A stretch of 17,121 nucleotides of DNA from Planctomycetota bacterium (GCA_016235875.1 JACRII010000057.1:1-17121), one strand, 5' to 3'; shown: positions 1,877 through 14,549, numbered from the stretch's first letter. The notes: generated from the sequence alone by a model not told the origin. Program-made: numbers and translations.

Positions 1877-2554
1877 ATGAGTTTAGTATTGGGTCCAATC
1901 CATTATTGGATGTTTGGGAAAATAAAAACTACCGAGTCGAGAGAATCTGCCATAGTCTCTGCATTTAAAGAAAAGTACGGTGCAGATGCAGATAAAATAC
2001 TTGATCAGGTGTATAAGAAATATCCAAAAACGAACAATAACAAACCCCTTGAAGAATTGCTGGCCAATAAGTCAATACATCAGGGAATTCAAAGTCTCAT
2101 CGTAGAAGTAGAAACACGGGAAGCCGCAGTAGTTGCCGCCTTCTGTGCCAAATATCCTGATGCCGCAAAAGTAGCAGCAGAGGCCGCACATAAACATGGC
2201 ATTAGTTGTGGAAAAGAGGCCGTTAAAAGCAAAGGGCTGTCAGCGGCAGATTACAACAACACCTCGAAGGCATTTGAGATAATGGGTGACTTTCACAGCG
2301 ACGGAATGCCATGTGATCGTGGTGCACAGGTAGTATCGGAATCTGAAAAATGCACATCCTGGGATCACGAAAGCTGTGTCCATGAACCGTACTGGAAAAA
2401 TGCCGGTGCAAACTTTTTAACGATGTGCGATATTGTCAACGAATGGATTGCAGGATTCGGTGAGGGAGTAAATCCCAAAATCAGTTACAAACGTTCAAAA
2501 ACCCTTGCTGCAGGAGACCCCTCGTGTTTAGGTAGTTTCGAAATAAAGAAATAA
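1877..2554 (+). CDS. Hypothetical protein with Cys/His-rich C-terminal domain (function unknown; C-terminal ...TLAAGDPSCLGSFEI tail resembles ATC-hydrolase/V4R-type GDxxC endings)
   Basis: 225-aa ORF. GAGGAG at 1864-1869 lies 7 nt before the ATG. The stop is 2 nt before the next gene's ATG, so it is embedded in the operon. The C-terminal half carries C146, C159, C167, C184 and C217 plus several His. The family assignment is only a weak recollection. Confidence 0.6.
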   Translation: MSLVLGPIHYWMFGKIKTTESRESAIVSAFKEKYGADADKILDQVYKKYPKTNNNKPLEELLANKSIHQGIQSLIVEVETREAAVVAAFCAKYPDAAKVAAEAAHKHGISCGKEAVKSKGLSAADYNNTSKAFEIMGDFHSDGMPCDRGAQVVSESEKCTSWDHESCVHEPYWKNAGANFLTMCDIVNEWIAGFGEGVNPKISYKRSKTLAAGDPSCLGSFEIKK

Positions 2555-2556
2555 GC

Positions 2557-3582
2557 ATGTCAGATCGTTATGCACGGCAGGTACTGTTCTACGGCATAGG
2601 TAATGAAGGCCAAAAGATACTTATGGAGAAGACTGCCGTGCTCGTTGGCTGCGGCGCATTGGGCTGTACTTCAGCAAATCTTCTCGTCCGCAGCGGAATC
2701 AAATGTCTCAAGATTGTTGACCGTGATTTTATCGAAGAAAGCAACCTGCAGCGCCAATCCTTATTTGACGAAGAAGATATAAACAAAAACCTCCCAAAAG
2801 CTGTTGCCGCACAAAAGAAACTTCAGAAAGTTAATTCCCAAATACAGATCGAGGCAATTGTTGTTGACCTCAGCCCATCCAATATTGAAACTATTCTGGA
2901 GAGCGCAAATATCGTTATCGATGGAACTGATAATTTTGAGTCACGCTTTCTCATCAATGATTATTGTGTGAAACACGGGATACCTTGGATTTACGGGGCT
3001 TGCATTGGGAGTATGGGTTTAACCATGAACATTATTCCATCAAAAACTCCCTGTCTCCGATGTGTACTCGACACTATTCCACCTTTTGGCACGACTGAGA
3101 CATGCGACACAGCAGGAATTATCGCACCCATTGCCAGTATGATTGCCTCTATTCAGGCAGCGGAAGCGCTAAAAATATTAACAGGGAATTACGATGCCTT
3201 GAGTAAAGGGCTTTTGAAGATAGACCTCTGGCATAACGAAATTAAAAAGCTGCATACCGATGATATTCGGGAGAAATCCGATTGTATAGCGTGCAAACTA
3301 CACCAGTATGAATTCCTGTCCAAAGATAGGTATTCAATGACAATCTCCCTGTGCGGCAGAAATGCCATACAAATTTTACACCCTAACGGATCGAATCTTG
3401 ATCTGGCGAAACTTGCAGAACGATTAGAGCATGTGGGTGAAGTGTCTTTTAACCGCTTTCTTTTACGGCTGAAAATAGACATATATGAGTTAACGGTATT
3501 TCCAGATGGACGATTAATTATTACCGGTACTAACGATGCCGCTGTGGCAAAGGGACTTTATGCAAAATATATAGGAATGTAA
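2557..3582 (+). CDS. ThiF/MoeB/HesA-family E1-like adenylyltransferase with C-terminal extension
   Basis: 341 aa. N-terminus is RYARQVLFYGIGNEGQKIL, followed by the nucleotide-binding loop VLVGCGALGC. Also present are DRDFIEESNLQRQ and the two CxxC pairs (PCLRC and DCIAC) that form the structural Zn site in MoeB/ThiF. About 90 extra residues follow the second CxxC. Confidence 0.85.
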   Translation: MSDRYARQVLFYGIGNEGQKILMEKTAVLVGCGALGCTSANLLVRSGIKCLKIVDRDFIEESNLQRQSLFDEEDINKNLPKAVAAQKKLQKVNSQIQIEAIVVDLSPSNIETILESANIVIDGTDNFESRFLINDYCVKHGIPWIYGACIGSMGLTMNIIPSKTPCLRCVLDTIPPFGTTETCDTAGIIAPIASMIASIQAAEALKILTGNYDALSKGLLKIDLWHNEIKKLHTDDIREKSDCIACKLHQYEFLSKDRYSMTISLCGRNAIQILHPNGSNLDLAKLAERLEHVGEVSFNRFLLRLKIDIYELTVFPDGRLIITGTNDAAVAKGLYAKYIGM

Positions 3583-3583
3583 T

Positions 3584-4732
3584 ATGAACTATCTCGATAA
3601 TGCAGCAACAACGTTTCCAAAACCAGAAATTGTATATAAAACAATGGACACCTTTTACCGAACACTGGGCGCAAACCCTGGACGGTCAGGTCACAAGATG
3701 GCAGTAGCGGCAGAAAAGGAAATTGAAGATACCCGTGCGGTTGTCACGAAATTATTAGGTATCAAGAATAGTAATCAATTTGTTTTTACCTTTAATGCAA
3801 CCGACGCCATAAACATGGGGATTAAAGGTTTACTCAAACCCGGAGACCATGCCATTACCACTTATCTCGAACACAACGCCGTATCCCGCGCACTCCATGG
3901 ACTAGAGAAAAGAAAAATAATTACTGTAACCAAAGTAAAAAATTCTCAGGACGGCTTTATTGAACCAGATGATATCAAGAATGCCATCACGCCCAGAACA
4001 CGTTTGATTGTTATGGCGCATGCACCCAATGTCATCGGTACGATCCAGCCCATCCAGGAGATTGGCAGGATCGCAAGAGAAAAGAACGTCATATTTATGG
4101 TAGATGCCGCCCAAACTACCGGTGTGTGTGAAATTGACGTTAACCAATGCTTTATCGATATGCTCGCTTTCACAGGACACAAAGGTCCGCTGGGCCCAAC
4201 TGGAACGGGGGGGTTGTATGTGGGAGAAGGGGTAAACCTTGAACCGTGGAGGGAAGGGGGGACAGGTTTTGAACCGGCCTCATTATCCCAGCCGGAAGAA
4301 CTACCTTTCAAGCTGGAGAGTGGCACACCAAATACCGTCGGTATCGCAGGACTCAGGGCAGGGGTAGAATATGTTCTATCCAGAGGAATTCAGACGATCA
4401 GAAAACATGAACAAAAATTAACCGGCAAACTCATAAACGCTTTAAAGGATGACCGGCGATTCATTTTGTACGGAACTACGGATATTTCCAAAAAGGTTGG
4501 TATCCTCTCCATAAATATCAAAGGATTTAAGCCCGCAGAAGTCGGCGCCATTCTTGATCAATCCTTTGACATTGCCGTTCGCACTGGTCTCCACTGCGCT
4601 CCCTTTGCGCATCAGGTGTTGGGCACGTTTCCAGACGGTACTGTCAGAGTCAGTCCGGGATGTTTCAATACAGAAGCGGACGTAAACCAACTCATAACCG
4701 CACTGGATAAAATCGCAAGTGAAAAAATATAA
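3584..4732 (+). CDS. Cysteine desulfurase family protein (class V PLP aminotransferase fold)
   Basis: 382 aa. The ATG is 1 nt after the upstream TAA. The N-terminus YLDNAATTFPKP, the PLP-lysine context AFTGHKGPLGPTGTGGLY, and the C-terminal RTGLHCAP (catalytic-Cys loop) are typical of the NifS/CsdA-like family. Confidence 0.85.
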   Translation: MNYLDNAATTFPKPEIVYKTMDTFYRTLGANPGRSGHKMAVAAEKEIEDTRAVVTKLLGIKNSNQFVFTFNATDAINMGIKGLLKPGDHAITTYLEHNAVSRALHGLEKRKIITVTKVKNSQDGFIEPDDIKNAITPRTRLIVMAHAPNVIGTIQPIQEIGRIAREKNVIFMVDAAQTTGVCEIDVNQCFIDMLAFTGHKGPLGPTGTGGLYVGEGVNLEPWREGGTGFEPASLSQPEELPFKLESGTPNTVGIAGLRAGVEYVLSRGIQTIRKHEQKLTGKLINALKDDRRFILYGTTDISKKVGILSINIKGFKPAEVGAILDQSFDIAVRTGLHCAPFAHQVLGTFPDGTVRVSPGCFNTEADVNQLITALDKIASEKI

Positions 4733-6470: not shown

Positions 6471-6528
6471 TCATAATAAATATAACTATTACCCTGCGGA
6501 TATTTTCGATACAAGAAAGGGAGGAATT

Positions 6529-7140
6529 ATGGCAACAATTTTGAAAGAAGATATTTTACGTAGGAAAAATAAGGAAACCAGCAGCAAAGAAAAGGTCGAC
6601 AAGATAATGAGCACGATAGTTGCACCACCCGTGCAATCGAACCTGCCAAAATCAGAAAGTAAAGAAAGCAAGCCAACCTCAGAAACAGTAAAACCTGCAG
6701 AAAGTACCGCAAGGCAGCATATCCTCAGCAGCGAAATATTGATAGAAGGAGAGTGTTCATCTGAACTTGACGAGATCAGAAACAGGCTTTTAAAAGAATT
6801 AAAACCTTCCGGTGAAATAGAATCAATTCTTGTGGATCGCATCGTTTCTGGTGTTTGGCGATTGAAACGGTGTTTGAAGATTGAAAGCCAGATAATAGAG
6901 TTTGAGTCGTCCGGCATTCAGGAGTACGAGCAAGGATTTTTTAGGACTAGAAAGAGAACAAATAAAGAACTGTCTCAATTAAGGGCTTTAAAAATAACTG
7001 AAGGTAAAAACAGGCTTGAGGAATTATCCAAATATGAAACCATCTTGGAAAGACAAATATATAAGGCATTAAGTGTACTGGATAAACTCAGACAAAATGG
7101 ATCAGTATCAGAAAAGAGGGTGTCAAGGAAGGCAAAATAG
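6529..7140 (+). CDS. Hypothetical protein (Ser/Lys/Glu-rich N-terminus, helical/coiled C-terminal half)
   Basis: 203-aa ORF. A strong SD (GGGAGG at 6517-6522) lies 6 nt before the ATG. I recognise no family. It contains the pattern SGEIESILVDRIVSGVWRLKRCLKIES. Long non-coding spacers flank it on both sides. Confidence 0.7.
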   Translation: MATILKEDILRRKNKETSSKEKVDKIMSTIVAPPVQSNLPKSESKESKPTSETVKPAESTARQHILSSEILIEGECSSELDEIRNRLLKELKPSGEIESILVDRIVSGVWRLKRCLKIESQIIEFESSGIQEYEQGFFRTRKRTNKELSQLRALKITEGKNRLEELSKYETILERQIYKALSVLDKLRQNGSVSEKRVSRKAK

Positions 7141-7431: not shown

Positions 7432-7460
7432 TTGACAAGATAAATTATGTCTGCTACTAT
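7432..7460 (+). promoter_or_regulatory. Sigma-70-like promoter for the ACP-led operon
   Basis: TTGACA (7432-7437), an exact 17-nt spacer, and TACTAT (7455-7460), with AT-rich sequence upstream (AAAGAATATTA). This predicts a leader of roughly 70 nt before the ACP start at 7536. An imperfect dyad GACA-N10-TGTC (7434-7451) overlaps the -35 element and spacer. Confidence 0.5.
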
Positions 7461-7535: not shown

Positions 7536-7805
7536 TTGAACGCTGGAGAGATTGAAAAAGGTGTAACCGCTATTGTTGCAGAGGTTACTGAGTTAGACGA
7601 AAAGGAGATTTGGGACAAAAGAGATGCAAATTTCTTTAAAGACCTTGAGATAGATTCCCTTTTAGCCTTAGAGATTCTGGCACTCATTGAAAAGAAGTTT
7701 AAAGTGCAAATACCTGAAGAAAAGCTTGTTGATATTACCTCATTAAACGCAACAATTGATTTAACAAAATCAGTATTGGCAGAGAGCGGCAAACTCACCT
7801 CATAA
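7536..7805 (+). CDS. Dedicated acyl carrier protein
   Basis: 89 aa. The TTG start is effectively forced: an in-frame TAA lies at 7521-7523, the protein has no internal Met, and GGAGG at 7525-7529 sits 6 nt upstream. FFKDLEIDSLLALEILALIEKKF contains the DSL phosphopantetheine-attachment serine (Ser41, codon 7656-7658) at the start of helix II. Confidence 0.9.
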   Translation: MNAGEIEKGVTAIVAEVTELDEKEIWDKRDANFFKDLEIDSLLALEILALIEKKFKVQIPEEKLVDITSLNATIDLTKSVLAESGKLTS

Positions 7806-7841
7806 GATGCTTGATACATAGCGCAACAAGACACAAACCAA

Positions 7842-7892
7842 TTACCCCCCTTTATTTACCCTTCTTAATGAACGGTAGATAAAGGGGGGTAA
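7842..7892 (+). terminator. Strong stem-loop between ACP and fabZ (partial terminator, attenuator or mRNA-stabilising hairpin)
   Basis: TTACCCCCCTTTATTTACC (7842-7860) pairs with GGTAGATAAAGGGGGGTAA (7874-7892): 19 bp with one G-U wobble that is allowed only in the plus-strand RNA, and a 13-nt loop. There is no clean U-tract after it (AACTTTATTAAAAATTT). Confidence 0.55.
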
Positions 7893-7988
7893 AACTTTAT
7901 TAAAAATTTAAAGCATAATATTTATTATTGTGTAATACGATTACCGAGTAATACTTTACATGATTAACACAAAAAAAGCATACTTACA

Positions 7989-8441
7989 ATGATATTATTT
8001 GAGGAAATTCGATCTCTTCTTCCTCAAAAATATCCTTTTCTATTTATTGATAAGGTTGTTGAGTTCGAAGAGGGGAAAAAAATCGTTTGTATCAAAAATG
8101 TATCCGGCAACGAACCTGTCTTTGTCGGACATTTCCCTGATTTTGCCATCATGCCAGGTGTCTTGATCATCGAGGCGATGGCACAGGCTTCTATTATCTT
8201 ATTCAGGAAGAGCCTCCCCCCTCAGCAAAACGACAAGAATACCGTTTTTTTATTAGCATCAGTCAATAATGCACGGTTTACAAAACCTGTATTCCCCGGC
8301 GATCAACTCTTCATAGAAATCATCGTGGAAAAAATTGTCTCCAAGGGCGCTATTGTTCAGGCAACGGTAAAAGTTGAAGAAAAAACCGTTGCGAAGGCAT
8401 CGTTGACCTTTGGCATTGCAGAAAAAAGTGCTTTGGTATAG
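7989..8441 (+). CDS. fabZ: 3-hydroxyacyl-ACP dehydratase
   Basis: 150 aa. LLPQKYPFLFIDKV...VFVGHFPDFAIMPGVLIIEAMAQ is the canonical FabZ hot-dog signature, with the catalytic His (GHFP) and Glu (IEAMAQ) intact. No SD precedes the ATG. Confidence 0.92.
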   Translation: MILFEEIRSLLPQKYPFLFIDKVVEFEEGKKIVCIKNVSGNEPVFVGHFPDFAIMPGVLIIEAMAQASIILFRKSLPPQQNDKNTVFLLASVNNARFTKPVFPGDQLFIEIIVEKIVSKGAIVQATVKVEEKTVAKASLTFGIAEKSALV

Positions 8442-8444
8442 TTT

Positions 8445-9665
8445 ATGAATAAACGTGTTGTTATAACAGGCGTAGGAATGATCACCCCTATCGGGTCAGG
8501 AAAGGACACATTTTGGAAGGCCCTTATTGCAGGGGCGTCTGGTGTGGACAACGTGACGTGCATAGATACTTCCGGCTATAAGGTTCATAAAGGATGTGAA
8601 GTTAAAAATTTCAATTATGCGGATTACATAAAAGACGACATTCTCAAAAAAATTGGCAAAGGTTCGCAATTTGCGATAGTAGCCACAAAGCTGGCTTTAA
8701 ACGATGCCAGGCTTGATTTGAATAAGACTAACTTAGAACGGATTGGGGTCTCTGTTGGAACAACCGCAGGAGAAATACAAATCCTGGAAAAAGTTAATTA
8801 TATCAGGCATAAAGATGGTGAAGATAAGGTCGACCCAGACCTGTTTTTGAAGCATCCTTGTAATAACATCCCGGCTAATATTGCTATTGAGTTTGGTTTG
8901 AAAGGTCCCAATACGATTATACCCACTGCCTGCGCTGCGGGTAATTATGCAATTGGATATGCCTATGACTTGATTAAGTTTGGAAGGGTGGACATGATGT
9001 TTGCCGGCGGTTCAGACCCTTTTTCGAAAGTTGCCTATACGGGATTCGCCAGACTGGGCGCTATTGCCCCTGATATCTGCCAGCCCTTTGATAAAAATAG
9101 AAAAGGCATGATGGTGGGTGAAGGCGCTGGGATGCTTCTTCTGGAATCGCTTGACCATGCAACAAAGAGAAATGCGAATATTTATGCTGAAATTATCGGT
9201 TATGGGCTTAGCTGTGATGCGTACCATATTACAATTCCTCATCCAGACGGCGAAGGTGTTGTCTCTGCTATGAAAAAAGCACTAAAAAGCGCAAACCTGA
9301 GTCCTAAAGATGTCCAGTATGTTAGTGCACATGGAACGGGAACTCCTGCGAATGACAAGGCTGAAACGATTTCAATTAAAAAGGTGTTCGGGGATAAACC
9401 CAGTAATCTTGCAATTAGTTCCATAAAATCAATGATTGGACATACCATGGGGGCAGCTAGCGCTATTGAGGCAATTACTTGCGCATTAGTTGTCCAGAAC
9501 GATATAATTCCTCCAACGATAAATTATGAAACGCTGGATCCGGAATGTGATCTGGACTATGTACCCAATGTTATGAGAAAACAACGGGTAAATATTGCAC
9601 TGAACAACGCCCATGCATTTGGCGGTAACAATAGTTGTCTGGTTGTAAAAAAGTTCACAGGATAA
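8445..9665 (+). CDS. fabF: Beta-ketoacyl-ACP synthase II type ketosynthase (catalytically complete)
   Basis: 406 aa. The ATG is 3 nt after the fabZ stop. The active-site Cys is in [12 protein letters not shown] (Cys163, codon 8931-8933). The two His are in [11 protein letters not shown] and [30 protein letters not shown] and the C-terminal [14 protein letters not shown] are also present. This is the full FabF/KAS II signature set. Confidence 0.92.
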
Positions 9666-9674
9666 AAAAGGTTT

Positions 9675-10919
9675 GTGATGGAAAAAACGAGAATCGTTAT
9701 TACAGGTGTTTCGGTTATCTCGCCTCTTGGGGCAGACAAGGATATTTTTTGGAAAAATTTAACCGAAGGTGTATCGGGTATAAAACCCGTCACCCTGTTC
9801 GATGTAAGTAAATTTAATAGCAAGCAGGCGGGAGAAATCTCTGGTTTTGATGCCAAGATTTATCTTGGTCAAAAAGGAATCCGACATATCGATAGAACCT
9901 CGCTCCTTGTATCATCAGGAACGGTTCTTGCCATCAAAGATGCGAACCTCGAAAACAATACCTATAGCGGTGATGAGCTGGGCATTGTCGTCGGCTCTAC
10001 CTATGGAAGTATTGACAGCATCAGTTCCTTTGATTTCCAGTCTTTGCGCGAAGGTCCCAGTTATGTCAATCCCATGGACTTTCCTAACACCGTGTTGAAT
10101 GCGCCAGCAAGCCGTGCCTCTATTTTCTGTAAGGCCACAGGACTCAATACCACCATTTCAAACGGCGTGACAAGCAGTATCGATGCTATTATTTATGCCT
10201 CTGATTTCCTTCGTATGGGTCGTGTAAAGGCAGCAGTTGTAGGCGGTGTACATGGATTAACCCATGACATATTTTGGGGTTCACATAATTCAAAGATACT
10301 GGCTGGCAGCAAGAACGGAACGCCGGAAATTTGCGCTCCATTTGATAAGAGGCGCAATGGAATGATTATTGGCGAGGCATCGGCGTTAGTTATTCTGGAA
10401 ACTTTGGAAGACGCTTTGAAGAGAAATGCGCATATATATGCTGAAGTTAAGGGTTACGGAACTGCATTCGAGCCTAAAATGGCCGTCAGCAAAGAATATC
10501 AAATAGACGGTAACAGGAGAGCCATTATGAACGCTCTTAATGACGCCAATCTGACACTGCATGACATTTCCTATATCTCCGCCAATGCCTATTCCGGTAT
10601 TCATGGCGATGCTCTTGAAACTAAAGTTATCAAAGAAGTCTTTGGTATGCGATCAAAACTCATCCCTGTGTCAGCTATAAAATCTATGACCGGTGAGTGT
10701 TTTGACGCCTCAGGTGCATTACAAACCATAGCCGCATTGATGTCCATCAAAACACACACAATTCCACCCACTATAAATTATAAGGAACCGGATACAGAGT
10801 GTGATTTAGATTACGTGATCAACAACAGCAGGGCTGTCCCAGTCAAGAACGTCCTTATAAACTCTTTCTCCCGATTGGGAAATAATTCATCCTTAATTAT
10901 CTCCAAATACAAACCGTAA
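9675..10919 (+). CDS. Ketosynthase homologue lacking the Cys-His-His triad (chain-length-factor-like, probably non-condensing partner subunit)
   Basis: 414 aa, with a GTG start at 9675 or an ATG at 9678. It aligns without gaps to the upstream KS over the conserved blocks (VITGVSVISPLG, RRNGMIIGEASA, HIYAEVKGYG, IPPTINY..D.ECDLDYV). The catalytic Cys position reads NGVTSS (Val; codons about 10164-10178). First His becomes Met (EPKMAV). Second His becomes Asn (ISANAYSG). The GH of KSMxGH becomes GE. Confidence 0.85.
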   Translation: MMEKTRIVITGVSVISPLGADKDIFWKNLTEGVSGIKPVTLFDVSKFNSKQAGEISGFDAKIYLGQKGIRHIDRTSLLVSSGTVLAIKDANLENNTYSGDELGIVVGSTYGSIDSISSFDFQSLREGPSYVNPMDFPNTVLNAPASRASIFCKATGLNTTISNGVTSSIDAIIYASDFLRMGRVKAAVVGGVHGLTHDIFWGSHNSKILAGSKNGTPEICAPFDKRRNGMIIGEASALVILETLEDALKRNAHIYAEVKGYGTAFEPKMAVSKEYQIDGNRRAIMNALNDANLTLHDISYISANAYSGIHGDALETKVIKEVFGMRSKLIPVSAIKSMTGECFDASGALQTIAALMSIKTHTIPPTINYKEPDTECDLDYVINNSRAVPVKNVLINSFSRLGNNSSLIISKYKP

Positions 10920-10922
10920 TTC

Positions 10923-12377
10923 ATGCTGTCTTCCGATACGTGTATTCAATCCACAAAAAAGGATATGCTATATCCTTATTATGATGCGATTGTGATTGGC
11001 TCGGGCGTAGCAGGATTAGTATGCGCTGCATTTCTTGCCAAATGTGGAAAAAAAGTGCTTATGGTGGAGCAACATTTCATTCCCGGAGGTTATTGTACTT
11101 CTTTTAAGCGAAAGGGTTTTACCTTCGATGCCGCAGTTCATCATATTGGCGGTTGCGGAAAATGGAGTGTTGTCGGTCGCTGCTTTAAGACACTTGGGAT
11201 TGGAATGGATTTCTATCCTCTCGACCCAATGGATCACCTGATTTTCCCCAACTTCAGCATTGAAATTCCAGCCGACCTGGATGAGTATATCGCACGTTTA
11301 CAGGATCGTTATCCATTGGAAAAAGACAACATTAAAGATTTTTTCCAGGATTTTATAAAACTCTACCGCGCTACATTTAACAATGAAAAGAGTCAAATTA
11401 TTGATAAATATAAGGATCAAACATATGGCGAGATGTTAGATGCCTTTTTTAAGAACGACGAACTCAAGATGATACTTGCCGGCCAATGGGGATACATAGG
11501 TCTCCCCCCTACTCAGGCATCCGCTATTGCAATGTGTCAAATGATGATCAATTATCTCAAAGACGGCGCATTTTTTCCTGCGGGTGGTACGCAAGAGTTT
11601 GCTAATGCAATTTTTAAGAAATTTATTGATTTTGGCGGACATGTTATGCTATCATCAAGAGTCAAGAAAATCCTTCTGAATGGTAGTTCCGTAAAAGGCA
11701 TTAAGTTACAGGATGGTAAAGAAATTTACTCCGGTTTAGTTGTGTCGAATGCTGACGCCAGGCAGACTTTTTTTGACCTATTAGAAGGTAAATCCGATCC
11801 ATCCTTTCTTAAAAAAGTTGAGGAGATGAGAGAAAGTTGTTCCTTCTTTCTTTTATATTTAGGCGTTGGAGGTGATGTAGATTTAACGAAGGTAAAGAGA
11901 GGGTTTTATCATACGGCCACAGATGCAAGCGCTATGGACAAAGAATGGTTATATATTTCCGTTCCAACAAAAATAAGTCCTACCCTTGCACCTTCAAATA
12001 AGCAAATAATATCTGTGGTTGTCTATTTGAATAAAGCGATGTATAAAAACGTTACCGATTGGAAATCTTTTAAAGAACGCATGACATTACAAACGATCAA
12101 TAGATTAGAATCATATATTCCTGATTTAAAAAAATATATCGAAGTAAAAGAGTCAGCTACACCGAAAACCCTGGAACGTTACACATCAAACACAAGCGGA
12201 GCTGCTTATGGCTGGGAAGTCACGGTCGACCAAATGTGGGAGAATAGACTATCACAGAAGACACCGATTGAAAATCTATATTTAACAGGTCATTGGACAA
12301 GACCAGGTCCTGGGATTTGTGCCGTTGTCTCTTCGGGATGGAGCGTAGCTAATTTAATTATGGAGAATTGGAGGTAA
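10923..12377 (+). CDS. CrtI/phytoene-desaturase-family FAD-dependent oxidoreductase
   Basis: 484 aa. The ATG is 3 nt after the upstream stop. The N-terminal dinucleotide fold is YDAIVIGSGVAGLVCAAFLAKCGKKVLMVEQHFIPGGYC. The C-terminal GAAYGW...NLYLTGHWTRPGPGICAVVSSG block is typical of CrtI/CrtD-type desaturases and isomerases. Confidence 0.85.
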   Translation: MLSSDTCIQSTKKDMLYPYYDAIVIGSGVAGLVCAAFLAKCGKKVLMVEQHFIPGGYCTSFKRKGFTFDAAVHHIGGCGKWSVVGRCFKTLGIGMDFYPLDPMDHLIFPNFSIEIPADLDEYIARLQDRYPLEKDNIKDFFQDFIKLYRATFNNEKSQIIDKYKDQTYGEMLDAFFKNDELKMILAGQWGYIGLPPTQASAIAMCQMMINYLKDGAFFPAGGTQEFANAIFKKFIDFGGHVMLSSRVKKILLNGSSVKGIKLQDGKEIYSGLVVSNADARQTFFDLLEGKSDPSFLKKVEEMRESCSFFLLYLGVGGDVDLTKVKRGFYHTATDASAMDKEWLYISVPTKISPTLAPSNKQIISVVVYLNKAMYKNVTDWKSFKERMTLQTINRLESYIPDLKKYIEVKESATPKTLERYTSNTSGAAYGWEVTVDQMWENRLSQKTPIENLYLTGHWTRPGPGICAVVSSGWSVANLIMENWR

Positions 12378-12385
12378 ATAAAAAT

Positions 12386-13846
12386 ATGAGTAGAAAAATG
12401 ATGTTAATTAATCCACATAAACCGGGCAGGCATGGTGAGGAGAGTATTACGGTAATCGTTCAAATGCCTTTAAATCTTGCCTACGTTGCCGCTCTTACAC
12501 CCGGTGATTGGGAATTTGACGTTATCGACGAAAATATTGAATTGGCAATAAACGATAATGATGAACTCACTTTTAAACCGGTAGACCTTGTGTGTATTAC
12601 CTCAGTTACCTATCAGTCTCCCAGGGCATACAAGATTGCAGCCGCTTGCAGGAAAAAGGGCATGACAGTAATCATGGGTGGAATACATGCATCTGTTGTG
12701 CCTGAAGAGGCCGCAAATTACGTTGATGCTGTTTTTGTGGGTGAGGCAGAAGAAGTGTGGCCACAGGTCATAAAAGATTTTGAAGCAGGAAAATTAAAAA
12801 AGGTCTACCAGGGCGGCTTACCCCCCCTTAGCCTGATGAAGAAGGTGTATCCAAACCGCGAACTCTTGAAAAATAAATACAACTATAAATTTTCTTCCAT
12901 CGTAACAACAAAAGGATGCCCCAACTATTGTGATTTTTGCAGTGTACCCACATTCCAGGGCAGAAAATTCAGGGAAAGACCTTATGAAGATGTCCTCGAT
13001 GAGATGGCAGCCACAGATTACAAGGGATTGATGTTAGCGGAAGATAACTTCTACGGTCATGGAAAAAAATCAAACGAGAGGGCACGAGATCTTTTCAAGG
13101 GAATGGTGGAACGTGGCATACACAAAGACTGGTTAGGATTCACGGCGTTAAACATCTCTCAAGACCAGGAAACATTAGATTATATGGCCAAGAGCGGCAA
13201 TTTTGGTATGCTTATCGGTATAGAATCTACGAATGAGGCCGTTTTGGAGAAAATGAATAAACGTGTGAACCTGAAGTTGGGTACCGATAGTTATTTTGAT
13301 TGTATCCAAAAGATTCACAACGCCGGCTTGGTTGTCTGGGGTTCCGTGGTATTTGGGGCCGATGGAGACGACAAAGATTCTTTTAAAAGAATGACTGAAT
13401 TTATATTGGAAAACAATATTGATATTCTCACCTTTGGCATTAACTGTCCCTTCCCCAAGACGCAACTCTATGCAAGACTGGATTCAGAAAAGAGGATTTT
13501 CAGGAAAAATTATCCGGAGGATTGGCAATATTACGATACAGCCCATGTGGTACACCGTTTCGTAGACATGTCATTGGAAAACTTTATTGAAGGCATGCAG
13601 TATGTTTATGACCATATTTATGCAGGTGATAACCTAAGGACACGATTCAGAAACTCAATTAAAACAACAAAGAATCCCAGAAACTCCATGTTTGCATTCA
13701 GGGTGGGTTCGGATTGGAAACAAGTTTTTGAACAAGTATTGCAGAATTTGAAGGAATTATACGATTCAGGCGATTATTATCAGGACTGGTACAAATCAAG
13801 TGCAGTACCTGTTTCAAAGCCAGTTATGGAAACAGTAACCACATAA
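12386..13846 (+). CDS. B12-binding-domain radical SAM enzyme (class B rSAM)
   Basis: I prefer the ATG at 12386 (MSRKMMLINP...), with GGAGG at 12370-12374. The track's TTG at 12368 would overlap the upstream gene by 10 nt. The N-terminal cobalamin-binding-like domain reads DLVCITSVTYQSPRAYKIAAACRKKGMTVIMGGIHASVVPEE. The radical SAM motif GCPNYCDFC (CxxxCxxC) is encoded at 12917-12940. Confidence 0.85.
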   Translation: MSRKMMLINPHKPGRHGEESITVIVQMPLNLAYVAALTPGDWEFDVIDENIELAINDNDELTFKPVDLVCITSVTYQSPRAYKIAAACRKKGMTVIMGGIHASVVPEEAANYVDAVFVGEAEEVWPQVIKDFEAGKLKKVYQGGLPPLSLMKKVYPNRELLKNKYNYKFSSIVTTKGCPNYCDFCSVPTFQGRKFRERPYEDVLDEMAATDYKGLMLAEDNFYGHGKKSNERARDLFKGMVERGIHKDWLGFTALNISQDQETLDYMAKSGNFGMLIGIESTNEAVLEKMNKRVNLKLGTDSYFDCIQKIHNAGLVVWGSVVFGADGDDKDSFKRMTEFILENNIDILTFGINCPFPKTQLYARLDSEKRIFRKNYPEDWQYYDTAHVVHRFVDMSLENFIEGMQYVYDHIYAGDNLRTRFRNSIKTTKNPRNSMFAFRVGSDWKQVFEQVLQNLKELYDSGDYYQDWYKSSAVPVSKPVMETVTT

Positions 13847-13880: not shown

Positions 13881-13925
13881 TTATAAAGGCACATCAATTT
13901 CATAATTGTTGATGTGCCTTTATAA
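13881..13925 (+). terminator. Intrinsic-terminator-like hairpin closing the lipid operon
   Basis: TTATAAAGGCACATCAA (13881-13897) is the perfect reverse complement of TTGATGTGCCTTTATAA (13909-13925): 17 bp with an 11-nt loop. The GC-rich core GGCACATCAA/TTGATGTGCC is followed by TTTATAATT. It starts 35 nt after the radical SAM stop codon. Confidence 0.6.
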
Positions 13926-13963
13926 TTGATAATAATCATGGTTTTGTGTTCGGCGGTTATGTC

Positions 13964-14380
13964 ATGGAAAATATCCTGAACCGAATTAGAGATTTCAGTA
14001 AAAAGGTTGAATTATTTTATGTGGCAACATCAAACCAAAAGAAAGAGGTACACCTCGCGGTAGCGAAGGGTTTGATTTTTTTACCTGACAATGAACATGT
14101 GGCTTTCAAGTCGTGGTTTTGCAAAAAAACAATAGAAAATATTCTTGAGAACCCGAATATATCTATTGCTATCTATGATACGAAGACCGATATGGGTTAT
14201 CAAATAGTTGGCAGAACAGTCTCAAAAAACGTGGTAGCTGTTTTAGATGGTTACTCACCGAGGTTGGAAAAGATTGAAAAAGAATATCCACAGGAAGAGT
14301 ATCAGTTGAAAGTAAAAATTATAAACATTATGGATTTACACAGAGTAGCTCATTCTGACAAGTATCTTTTACTTAATTGA
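13964..14380 (+). CDS. Pyridoxamine 5'-phosphate oxidase-like (FMN-binding split-barrel) family protein
   Basis: I prefer the ATG at 13964 (MENILN...) over the track's GTG at 13946. LFYVATSNQKKEVHLAVAKGLIFLPDNEHVAF...TIENILENPNISIAIYDTKTDMGYQIVGR follows the usual PNPOx-like pattern (..aT.....P....k.......l.F......T..Nl..NP.vs..v.d....g.qi.G.). The family call is from memory. Confidence 0.5.
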   Translation: MENILNRIRDFSKKVELFYVATSNQKKEVHLAVAKGLIFLPDNEHVAFKSWFCKKTIENILENPNISIAIYDTKTDMGYQIVGRTVSKNVVAVLDGYSPRLEKIEKEYPQEEYQLKVKIINIMDLHRVAHSDKYLLLN

Positions 14381-14420: not shown

Positions 14421-14549
14421 ATGATAGGCAAGTTATTATCTTTATCAATGGAGAAATCGATCATTCCGGATATTAGTCCAAAAGCAATTATGGTTATTGC
14501 CATTGCGCTAATATTCGTTATATTATTCACCTGGAAAAAGGAGGGATAA
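14421..14549 (+). CDS. Small single-pass membrane peptide (42 aa), below the ORF-track cutoff
   Basis: My own translation gives MIGKLLSLSMEKSIIPDISPKAIMVIAIALIFVILFTWKKEG. An excellent SD (AAGGAGGTG at 14408-14416; the GGAGG core is 6 nt before the ATG). A C-terminal hydrophobic helix is followed by KKEG. Its last codons (AAG GAG GGA TAA) provide the SD for the next gene, whose TTG start abuts the TAA. Confidence 0.55.
   Translation: MIGKLLSLSMEKSIIPDISPKAIMVIAIALIFVILFTWKKEG

Follow-up and report, generated by a model that had tools for sequence, protein, structure and literature searches.

The window analysed here, the whole 17,121-nucleotide (nt) stretch of Planctomycetota bacterium DNA deposited as JACRII010000057.1:1-17121 (assembly GCA_016235875.1), encodes a CrtI-family flavoenzyme followed at once by a radical S-adenosylmethionine (SAM) protein. 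By sequence the two are best assigned to kuste3607 and kuste3608 of "Cluster I", the main candidate cluster for ladderane synthesis in anaerobic ammonium-oxidising (anammox) bacteria, which has already been described (PMC2649909, PMC4790861, PMC10139942). An earlier note on this DNA had proposed the two genes as a tailoring pair; the proposal matches the published ones and gains strength from the adjacency of the genes, which proved to be strictly conserved across lineages, but the note had missed that this is the known kuste3607/kuste3608 pair. The identity and orthology of the genes, their domains and folds, the intact catalytic motifs, the close packing of the operon and the conserved gene order are established. 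Complete copies of the cluster also occur on high-GC (guanine-cytosine) contigs, which contradicts the statement that it is "encountered exclusively" in ladderane producers (PMC10139942).

The synthesis of ladderanes, which are linearly fused cyclobutanes, has long been unsolved in lipid and radical enzymology, and the two enzymes are the prime suspects for its unusual chemistry. The window alone adds one more orthologue; the comparative results bear on the open question. The reading that we hold to be somewhat probable is that the pair forms the last genes of a ladderane-candidate Cluster I, in which the flavoenzyme would alter the unsaturation of an acyl chain and the radical SAM protein would form carbon-carbon bonds. 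All of this chemistry, that is the substrate, the order of the steps, the use of cobalamin and the link to ladderanes, is what we infer.

Identity of the cluster and its host

The window (41% GC) derives, as judged by protein similarity alone, from the metagenome-assembled genome of an anammox bacterium of the Brocadiales. The closest proteins are named Candidatus (Ca.) Brocadia, Jettenia and Kuenenia and are 78–95% identical. A radical SAM protein identical to that of the window is encoded on contig DBJWYS010000024.1 (assembly GCA_052360725.1); this protein shares 95% identity with its counterpart in Ca. Brocadia sp. AMX2 and 87% with the one in K. stuttgartiensis. The relatives of the flavoenzyme are Brocadia, Jettenia, Kuenenia and Scalindua proteins. 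No hydrazine synthase gene is present in the window.

The K. stuttgartiensis locus agrees in all six genes, in their order and in their orientation, with protein identities of 91% for the acyl carrier protein (ACP), 83% for FabZ, 88% for the ketosynthase, 82% for the dead ketosynthase, 73–74% for the flavoenzyme and 87% for the radical SAM protein. Its genes kuste3603–3608 are listed as ACP, FabZ, FabF, non-canonical FabF, phytoene desaturase and SAM radical enzyme (PMC4790861 Table 2), and the six genes of the window match these functions one for one. A trait of Cluster I is that its second ketosynthase carries substitutions in the catalytic triad, with Val or Thr in place of Cys and Asn, Glu or Cys in place of His. 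In Kuste3606 the triad positions are Val163/Asn298/Glu333 (PMC2649909 Table 2), and the dead ketosynthase of the window carries the same Val, Asn and Glu. Since gene order, identities, listed functions and these residues all match, the pair is assigned to kuste3607/kuste3608.

The two loci also share a GGAGG within the last codons of the flavoenzyme gene and, downstream, a 42-codon open reading frame (ORF) that precedes lpd. They differ in the gap between flavoenzyme and radical SAM genes (8 nt in the window, 4 nt in Kuenenia) and in the spacer after the ACP gene (183 nt with a hairpin in the window, 48 nt in Kuenenia), while a gene of the pyridoxamine 5'-phosphate oxidase (PNPOx) type and a strong hairpin after the radical SAM gene occur in the window only.

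Conservation of gene order and family boundaries

In every fetched locus with enough flanking sequence, over a range of 35–76% GC, the CrtI-like gene directly precedes the radical SAM gene. Likewise, every fetched kuste3608-type gene with enough upstream sequence is preceded by ACP, FabZ, ketosynthase, chain-length factor and CrtI-like genes in that order. The radical SAM family is sharply bounded: in a library of 1.84 billion representatives at 50% identity, a single full-length entry (62% identical, 686 bits) stands for the whole family, whereas the next entry is 46% identical (431 bits) and the others are at most 43%. A scan of GTDB species genomes gave, among the matches listed, four orthologues, the other 76 loci being relatives of 27–38% identity.

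A neighbour-joining tree of the radical SAM proteins showed a kuste3608-type anammox clade, a kuste2803-type anammox clade, a further Brocadiales clade and two clades from high-GC or unnamed metagenomic contigs; the further Brocadiales clade has one sampled locus, in which the gene is solitary. The flavoenzyme family is distributed in parallel, each family comprising an anammox clade and a high-GC clade beyond which similarity drops sharply. Members of the high-GC flavoenzyme clade, which bear Acidobacteria, Vicinamibacteria, Myxococcota and Planctomycetota labels, are 57–76% identical to one another and 43–47% identical to the anammox flavoenzymes; the corresponding values are 38% for Desulfobacterales proteins and 25–30% for true CrtD or RetSat-like proteins.

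Probable occurrence outside anammox bacteria

Complete syntenic clusters were found on contigs of 53–76% GC labelled Acidobacteria or Planctomycetota, among them loci L004, L005, L006 and L093 (60% GC), L095–L099, L092 (70% GC; 72% for the same contig at L007/L008) and a JGI 3300056388 contig (P0411), whose cluster is known from its gene table alone. The 60% GC contigs, labelled Acidobacteria bacterium 13_1_40CM_2_60_7 at NCBI and including GCA_036790625.1, carry the six genes together with a FabG-like reductase and FabH, flanked by glycoside hydrolases. The 72% GC Planctomycetota contig (436–884 kb) has a full cluster in which the CrtI-like and radical SAM genes overlap by 4 nt, and a second set of ketosynthase, chain-length factor and radical SAM genes about 300 kb away. 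On a 120-kb JGI contig the same cluster adjoins a TonB-dependent receptor. Overall, the flanks of the high-GC clusters contain glycoside hydrolases, TonB-dependent receptors and Ser/Thr kinases. A FabG-like SDR gene follows the radical SAM gene in all those of the loci listed above whose sequence extends past it, and it is only in the non-anammox versions that a ketoreductase adjoins the cluster.

A search of the literature, coverage of which was incomplete, gave no previous description of true Cluster I orthologues beyond the anammox group, although one may exist. It brought up only "ladderane"-type cluster calls on fragments of 1.2–1.35 kb with two to three genes (PMC11968836). On balance, Cluster I, including the flavoenzyme/radical SAM pair, seems not to be exclusive to anammox bacteria: either cyclobutane (ladderane-type) lipids are made beyond this group, or the product of Cluster I is more general and not ladder-forming. 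In both cases the high-GC orthologues offer alternative enzymes and organisms for lipid analysis, heterologous expression and reconstitution.

The junction between the two genes

The CrtI-like ORF begins with ATG and encodes 484 amino acids (ORF scan of the window), and the radical SAM ORF, which ends at 13846 on the plus strand, has two candidate starts, TTG at 12368 and ATG at 12386. Nucleotides 12360–12388 read atggagaattggaggTAAataaaaatATG. As had been stated before, the TAA stop codon of the flavoenzyme (12375–12377) lies 8 nt before the ATG, and the Shine-Dalgarno sequence of the radical SAM gene (GGAGG, 12370–12374) falls within the last codons of the upstream gene. The TTG start, which would make the genes overlap by 10 nt, was rejected: the extension that it adds (MEVNKN) is not conserved, and the gene call of the assembly uses ATG 12386. 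The N-termini of 17 homologues match this ATG to within 1–3 residues (alignment A1). ATG 12386 is therefore the better start, which is also the choice made in the earlier note.

A stop and a start codon a few nt apart, with the Shine-Dalgarno sequence inside the upstream gene, make up a layout for translational coupling, though the dependence itself is putative. Over 45 distinct junctions the gap between CrtI-like and radical SAM genes has a median of 8 nt; it is 10 nt or less in 26, a 4-nt overlap in 5 and longer than 30 nt in 3. The string aattggaggtaa at the junction is conserved in Kuenenia- and Brocadia-type loci, and in a Scalindua-like group the Shine-Dalgarno sequence is shifted to just behind the stop codon of the flavoenzyme. 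One of the three long gaps (about 92 nt; L011 6907–7012, from a 52% GC Rifle Planctomycetes genome) contains an inverted repeat, seen by eye, of ggttacaggagacagggaacagg and cctgtgtcctgtggcctgtttcctgt.

The coupling that had been proposed for the pair thus stands as regards the tight junction, but is not specific to it. The other junctions are just as tight (3 nt between FabZ and ketosynthase, 9 nt between ketosynthase and chain-length factor, 3 nt between chain-length factor and CrtI-like gene), and because this holds for every junction from FabZ to the radical SAM gene, the pair does not stand out from its neighbours in this respect. The unit of putative coupling is the whole block of five genes from FabZ to the radical SAM gene (7989–13846), rather than the pair alone.

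The CrtI-like flavoenzyme

The flavoenzyme matches the Pfam models NAD_binding_8 (50.2 bits) and Amino_oxidase (46.5 bits), has an N-terminal GxGxxG Rossmann motif for binding of flavin adenine dinucleotide (FAD) and a CrtI-type fold. The classes assigned to it and to its B12-domain radical SAM partner from the sequence are borne out by the Pfam and fold matches of each. Its top NCBIfam model is the carotenoid isomerase TIGR02730 (190.3 bits; cut-off 586.9), followed by crtI_fam, TIGR02734 (184.3 bits; cut-off 238.1). The nearest solved sequences are Pantoea CrtI (4dgk, E = 3.8e-29) and then 4rep. An AlphaFold model built with 18 homologues had a mean predicted local distance difference test (pLDDT) score of 87, and its best solved match was 4rep, a gamma-carotenoid desaturase (template modelling (TM) score 0.82).

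In its GxGxxG motif, three-domain fold and conserved C-terminal motif the protein resembles the CrtI/CrtD carotenoid desaturases (4dgk, 4rep), from which it differs in being only about 20–22% identical and in scoring under the TIGR02734 cut-off. Its context, too, is that of fatty-acid or polyketide synthesis instead of isoprenoid synthesis, and we agree with the earlier note that a CrtI-type enzyme beside fatty acid synthesis genes is unusual. The orthologue kuste3607 had no phytoene desaturase activity; it did not replace CrtI, and lycopene synthesis was not restored in Escherichia coli (PMC4790861).

The homology to CrtI/CrtD might be taken to mean that this is a genuine carotenoid enzyme that merely adjoins fatty-acid genes. 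Neither domain nor gene annotation gave any carotenoid gene in the window or in the surrounding 21-kb locus. Nearby carotenoid genes, along with a firm grouping among genuine carotenoid enzymes, had been named in the earlier note as what would refute its proposal, and this objection thus falls away. Together with the sub-threshold NCBIfam score, the fixed position between chain-length factor and radical SAM gene in all lineages and the failure of the Kuenenia orthologue to complement crtI (PMC4790861), the lack of carotenoid genes leads us to reject the carotenoid reading, which we regard as having next to no chance of being right.

It is harder to say in which direction the enzyme works, as the sequence features and models do not separate desaturase, isomerase and saturase. 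The enzyme might be reductive, a saturase akin to RetSat of the CRTISO branch that replaces the enoyl or polyene reductase missing from the cluster. The slight lead of the isomerase model over crtI_fam, the lack of a FabI-type reductase in the cluster and the inactivity of the Kuenenia orthologue on phytoene (PMC4790861) fit this idea. Against it, the nearest solved structures are desaturases (4rep, 4dgk and 5mog), and no sequence feature examined tells the three activities apart. We consider a saturase unlikely, but it would be compatible with the pathway favoured here.

The radical SAM protein

The radical SAM protein has a B12-binding domain (PF02310; 39.1 bits, cut-off 32.1) at residues 28–127 and a Radical_SAM domain (PF04055; 52.3 bits, cut-off 29.5) at residues 172–340. 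The GCPNYCDFC motif reported before is present; the position given for it, 12917, is that of its first Cys codon, the motif as a whole being encoded at 12914–12940. The cluster-binding cysteines are C178, C182 and C185. A C-terminal region free of recognised motifs had been estimated at about 170 amino acids, but it measures about 146. When examined for the DUF4070 domain, as the earlier note had advised, this part gave a borderline match (21.5 bits against a cut-off of 22, residues 359–434), and PF13282 is present in the precomputed annotation of many orthologues.

The structural model (pLDDT 83.9) has a Rossmann-like beta/alpha N-terminal domain, and its structural neighbours are AprD4, MgmA, TsrM, CysS, OxsB and MiaB, the best match being AprD4 (6fd2; TM score 0.67). 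A search of PDB sequences with the family profile gave remote matches only (AprD4, MgmA, TsrM and MiaB). AprD4 has a B12-type domain and yet reportedly does not use cobalamin.

Assignment to TIGR04072 ("rSAM_ladder_B12", lipid biosynthesis B12-binding/radical SAM) was considered and rejected, since the protein scores 90.5 bits against a cut-off of 360. This is nonetheless its top curated family, followed by HpnR, HpnJ, PhpK, MCR glutamine methylase and BchE, so that non-methylating enzymes (HpnJ, BchE) and methylases are mixed among its neighbours. As in BchE, HpnJ and OxsB, a B12-type Rossmann domain at the N-terminus of the protein precedes a radical SAM barrel. For these three, of which HpnJ and BchE are curated matches and OxsB a structural one, ring-forming or ring-rearranging chemistry has been proposed. 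The protein differs from BchE and HpnJ in scoring far under their family cut-offs (64–85 bits against 481–650), and from all three in that its substrate would be an acyl-ACP; its activity is predicted only.

No fusion of the radical SAM protein with a flavoenzyme was found among the long relatives checked, which showed only unannotated N-terminal extensions and one MMPL transporter fusion. The latter, P0377, is a 1210-residue MMPL-type lipid transporter fused to a B12-radical SAM domain that is 35% identical to the protein of the window, and it is a hint that lipids are also acted on by the closest relatives beyond the family.

Anammox bacteria contain mid-chain methyl-branched fatty acids, and the protein could in principle be an ordinary class B cobalamin-dependent C-methyltransferase that places methyl branches on fatty acyl chains, while the flavoenzyme would ready or complete the site of methylation by desaturation or reduction. 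Most characterised cobalamin-dependent radical SAM enzymes are indeed methylases (PMC13598231, PMC9204698), HpnR, the PhpK family and MCR glutamine methylase score near HpnJ and BchE, and the methylases MgmA, TsrM and CysS are among the structural neighbours. Branching of bulk fatty acids, however, needs no dedicated ACP, ketosynthase/chain-length factor pair or short-chain dehydratase; the family stands sharply apart from the characterised methylases, as its identity values above illustrate, and the scores for the curated methylase models all stay well short of the respective cut-offs. We regard methylation as quite improbable. Ring formation or ligation is preferred because the family is remote from characterised methylases, because the genes lie in a context of chain building on its own ACP, and because the non-methylating B12-radical SAM enzymes all make or rearrange rings (PMC13598231). 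Cyclisation, raised as conceivable in the earlier note, may thus be counted as a live option.

Proposed role of the pair

In the ladderane pathway favoured here, the ketosynthase/chain-length factor heterodimer, the dedicated FabZ and a ketoreductase acting in trans would build an enoyl or polyenoyl chain of about C4–C8 on the dedicated ACP. The FAD enzyme would then change the unsaturation of the tethered chain, which it would either desaturate or isomerise (cis/trans or positionally). Finally, the 5'-deoxyadenosyl radical of the radical SAM enzyme would abstract a hydrogen, with cobalamin as auxiliary, leading to carbon-carbon bond formation (ring closure or ligation) rather than methyl transfer.

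Parts of this scheme agree with published work. Cluster I is highly expressed (PMC4790861), its two ketosynthase homologues form a heterodimer like that of ketosynthase and chain-length factor (bioRxiv 10.64898/2026.05.19.726425), and both this heterodimer and amxFabZ favour C6–C8 substrates and the ACP of the cluster (PMC10139942; bioRxiv 10.64898/2026.05.19.726425). Reviews presume that the cyclobutanes are formed by the radical SAM protein (PMC13459092, PMC13598231), whose heterologous expression has so far failed. The ladderane link itself is built on published arguments of co-occurrence and expression.

Two known systems offer parallels. Type II polyene systems (ishigamide Iga11/Iga12, aryl polyene) share with Cluster I the ketosynthase/chain-length factor heterodimer, a dehydratase, an ACP and the lack of an enoyl reductase. 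The second is Jaw5/C10P, in which Jaw5 is presumably a HemN-like radical SAM enzyme and not a B12-domain enzyme. There, radical SAM cyclopropanation works with an iterative polyketide synthase on an alpha,beta-unsaturated thioester, a precedent for installing a ring while the chain is growing (bioRxiv 10.64898/2026.05.19.726425; PMC13459092). In both cases the likeness to Cluster I is an analogy of logic, and no polyene product is known from anammox bacteria.

Several points weigh against the proposed role. Sequence cannot tell methyl transfer from ring formation, and cobalamin dependence is not assured because the nearest solved structure, AprD4, is reportedly cobalamin-free. The specificity of the cluster to ladderane producers is weakened by the complete clusters on high-GC contigs from groups without known ladderanes. 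No experiment ties any Cluster I protein to ladderanes (PMC10139942; bioRxiv 10.64898/2026.05.19.726425), and anaerobic expression of kuste3603–3608 in E. coli gave no new fatty acids (PMC4790861). Moreover, polyunsaturated and cyclopropyl fatty acids were undetected in anammox bacteria, and isotope labelling disagrees with schemes in which the ladder part arises by a polyene cascade or by closing the rings stepwise (PMC10139942).

These points bear on a competing explanation, that the six-gene module is not ladder-forming at all but makes some other ACP-bound product common to anammox and non-anammox bacteria (a short polyene-derived or modified acyl primer or lipid), with the ladder step located elsewhere. 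The syntenic clusters on Acidobacteria and Planctomycetota contigs of 53–76% GC, with Vicinamibacteria and Myxococcota labels in the clade, speak for it, as do the absence of ladderanes upon heterologous expression (PMC4790861) and the preference for C6–C8 substrates, which would suit the making of only a short part of a lipid (PMC10139942). The set of ketosynthase/chain-length factor, dehydratase, in some cases ketoreductase, and ACP without enoyl reductase also resembles type II polyene synthases, and the FabZ has ApeI/ApeP-like Pfam matches. Against this, the cluster is conserved in the sampled anammox genera and highly expressed (PMC4790861, PMC10139942), the high-GC carriers could themselves make ladderane-like lipids, and anammox bacteria have so far shown no other product. 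We consider a non-ladderane product possible, if rather doubtful.

The paralogous kuste2803-type cluster

Anammox bacteria possess a second cluster, kuste2802–2805, consisting of ACP synthase, radical SAM, ketosynthase and dead ketosynthase genes in this order (locus L010). Its radical SAM protein is a paralogue in the same tight family (52–55% identical, same domain layout) and likewise adjoins a pair that resembles ketosynthase and chain-length factor. In contrast to Cluster I, the kuste2803-type cluster has no CrtI-like partner, its radical SAM gene lies before rather than after the ketosynthases, and the protein forms a separate neighbour-joining clade. A published similarity network groups Kuste2803 with HpnJ and BchE (PMC9204698).

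In three high-GC loci (L091, L100 and L102) a second radical SAM gene and then further ketosynthase genes come straight after Cluster I. The first of these, on a 153-kb JGI contig of 66% GC, additionally has FGE-sulfatase-like, Polyketide_cyc2, MIase, ferredoxin, enoyl-CoA hydratase-type and SDR genes. On one 95-kb contig of 50% GC (L129 and L140) the two clusters lie within about 18 kb of each other. Because some genomes have Cluster I joined in tandem to another unit of radical SAM, ketosynthase and chain-length factor genes, the data suggest that the anammox clusters kuste3603–3608 and kuste2802–2805 serve one pathway.

The operon and the rest of the window

The operon, all on the plus strand, runs in the order ACP, FabZ, ketosynthase, dead ketosynthase (chain-length factor), CrtI-like flavoenzyme and radical SAM protein, so that the pair closes it (Table 1). 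A candidate promoter lies 76 nt upstream of the ACP gene. The FabZ has ApeI/ApeP-like matches in its precomputed Pfam annotation, and domain and gene annotation showed no enoyl reductase of the FabI type in the cluster.

Table 1. Coordinates of the Cluster I operon and associated features in the window
Feature	Position	Strand	Basis or remark
Sigma-70-like promoter candidate (TTGACA, 17 nt, TACTAT, extended -10 TG)	7432–7460	+	Top-scoring site of the region; consensus match only
Acyl carrier protein (amxACP, kuste3603 orthologue)	7536–7805	+	PF00550, 53.2 bits
RNA hairpin between ACP and FabZ genes (19-bp stem with inner 3-bp stem)	7842–7892	+	RNA folding
FabZ-type 3-hydroxyacyl-ACP dehydratase (amxFabZ, kuste3604 orthologue)	7989–8441	+	PF07977, 97 bits; NF000582, 156 bits
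Active ketosynthase (amxFabF2, kuste3605 orthologue)	8445–9665	+	Triad Cys163/His296/His333 intact
Dead ketosynthase homologue, chain-length-factor-like (amxFabFmut, kuste3606 orthologue)	9675–10919	+	Triad positions Val/Asn/Glu
CrtI-family FAD flavoenzyme ("PDH", kuste3607 orthologue)	10923–12377	+	NAD_binding_8 and Amino_oxidase matches
Shine-Dalgarno sequence GGAGG of the radical SAM gene	12370–12374	+	Within the last two sense codons (TGG AGG) of the flavoenzyme
Radical SAM protein with N-terminal B12-binding-type and DUF4070-like C-terminal helical domains (kuste3608 orthologue)	12386–13846	+	Pfam, alignment, model
GCPNYCDFC (CxxxCxxC) for the radical SAM [4Fe-4S] cluster	12914–12940	+	Three Cys invariant in alignment A1
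Perfect 18-bp hairpin, 35 nt past the radical SAM stop codon	13881–13925	+	-28.5 kcal/mol, z = -5.6

The 183 nt that separate the ACP gene from FabZ (7806–7988) fold with -48.5 kcal/mol (z = -7.7). The hairpin in this spacer, which is not conserved in Kuenenia with its 48-nt spacer, may be a partial terminator or a stabiliser and could raise the ratio of ACP to enzymes. The hairpin behind the radical SAM gene lacks a T-run and is thus not a canonical intrinsic terminator; it is probably the 3' end or a stabiliser of the operon transcript, and it likely sets the lipid operon apart from the PNPOx-like gene. A promoter-like site (13899–13926) overlaps it. An Rfam scan of the whole window gave no family at threshold, and the two hairpins are therefore not known RNA elements.

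The PNPOx-like gene (13964–14380), whose product has the flavin-binding fold of this oxidase, lies between the radical SAM gene and lpd. It is followed by the 42-codon ORF (14421–14549; MIGKLLSLSMEKSIIPDISPKAIMVIAIALIFVILFTWKKEG), which has its own GGAGG, encodes one hydrophobic helix and ends right at the TTG start of lpd (14550). The Kuenenia ORF in the same position is found at L002 9520–9648. A second gene of the FabA/FabZ fold, about 31% identical to the FabZ of the cluster, was observed at L001 17782–18255 (minus strand), about 6 kb downstream of the radical SAM gene and on the opposite strand, and it recurs in at least seven further Brocadia-type loci.

Just upstream of the promoter region of the operon, a 203-codon ORF rich in Lys, Glu and Ser (6529–7140, plus strand) has no Pfam match. 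It is overlapped by an antisense ORF of 142 codons (6489–6917, minus strand); the source assembly calls the plus-strand ORF. Other genes of the window code for QueC, QueE, a ThiF-type enzyme, a cysteine desulfurase-like protein, a cytochrome c assembly protein and, besides the PNPOx-like protein, dihydrolipoyl dehydrogenase. Nucleotides 1877–4732 contain a packed trio of a weak ATC_hydrolase-like gene, a ThiF/MoeB-type adenylyltransferase and a class V aminotransferase (cysteine desulfurase-like), which looks like a sulfur-transfer module unrelated to the flavoenzyme/radical SAM pair.

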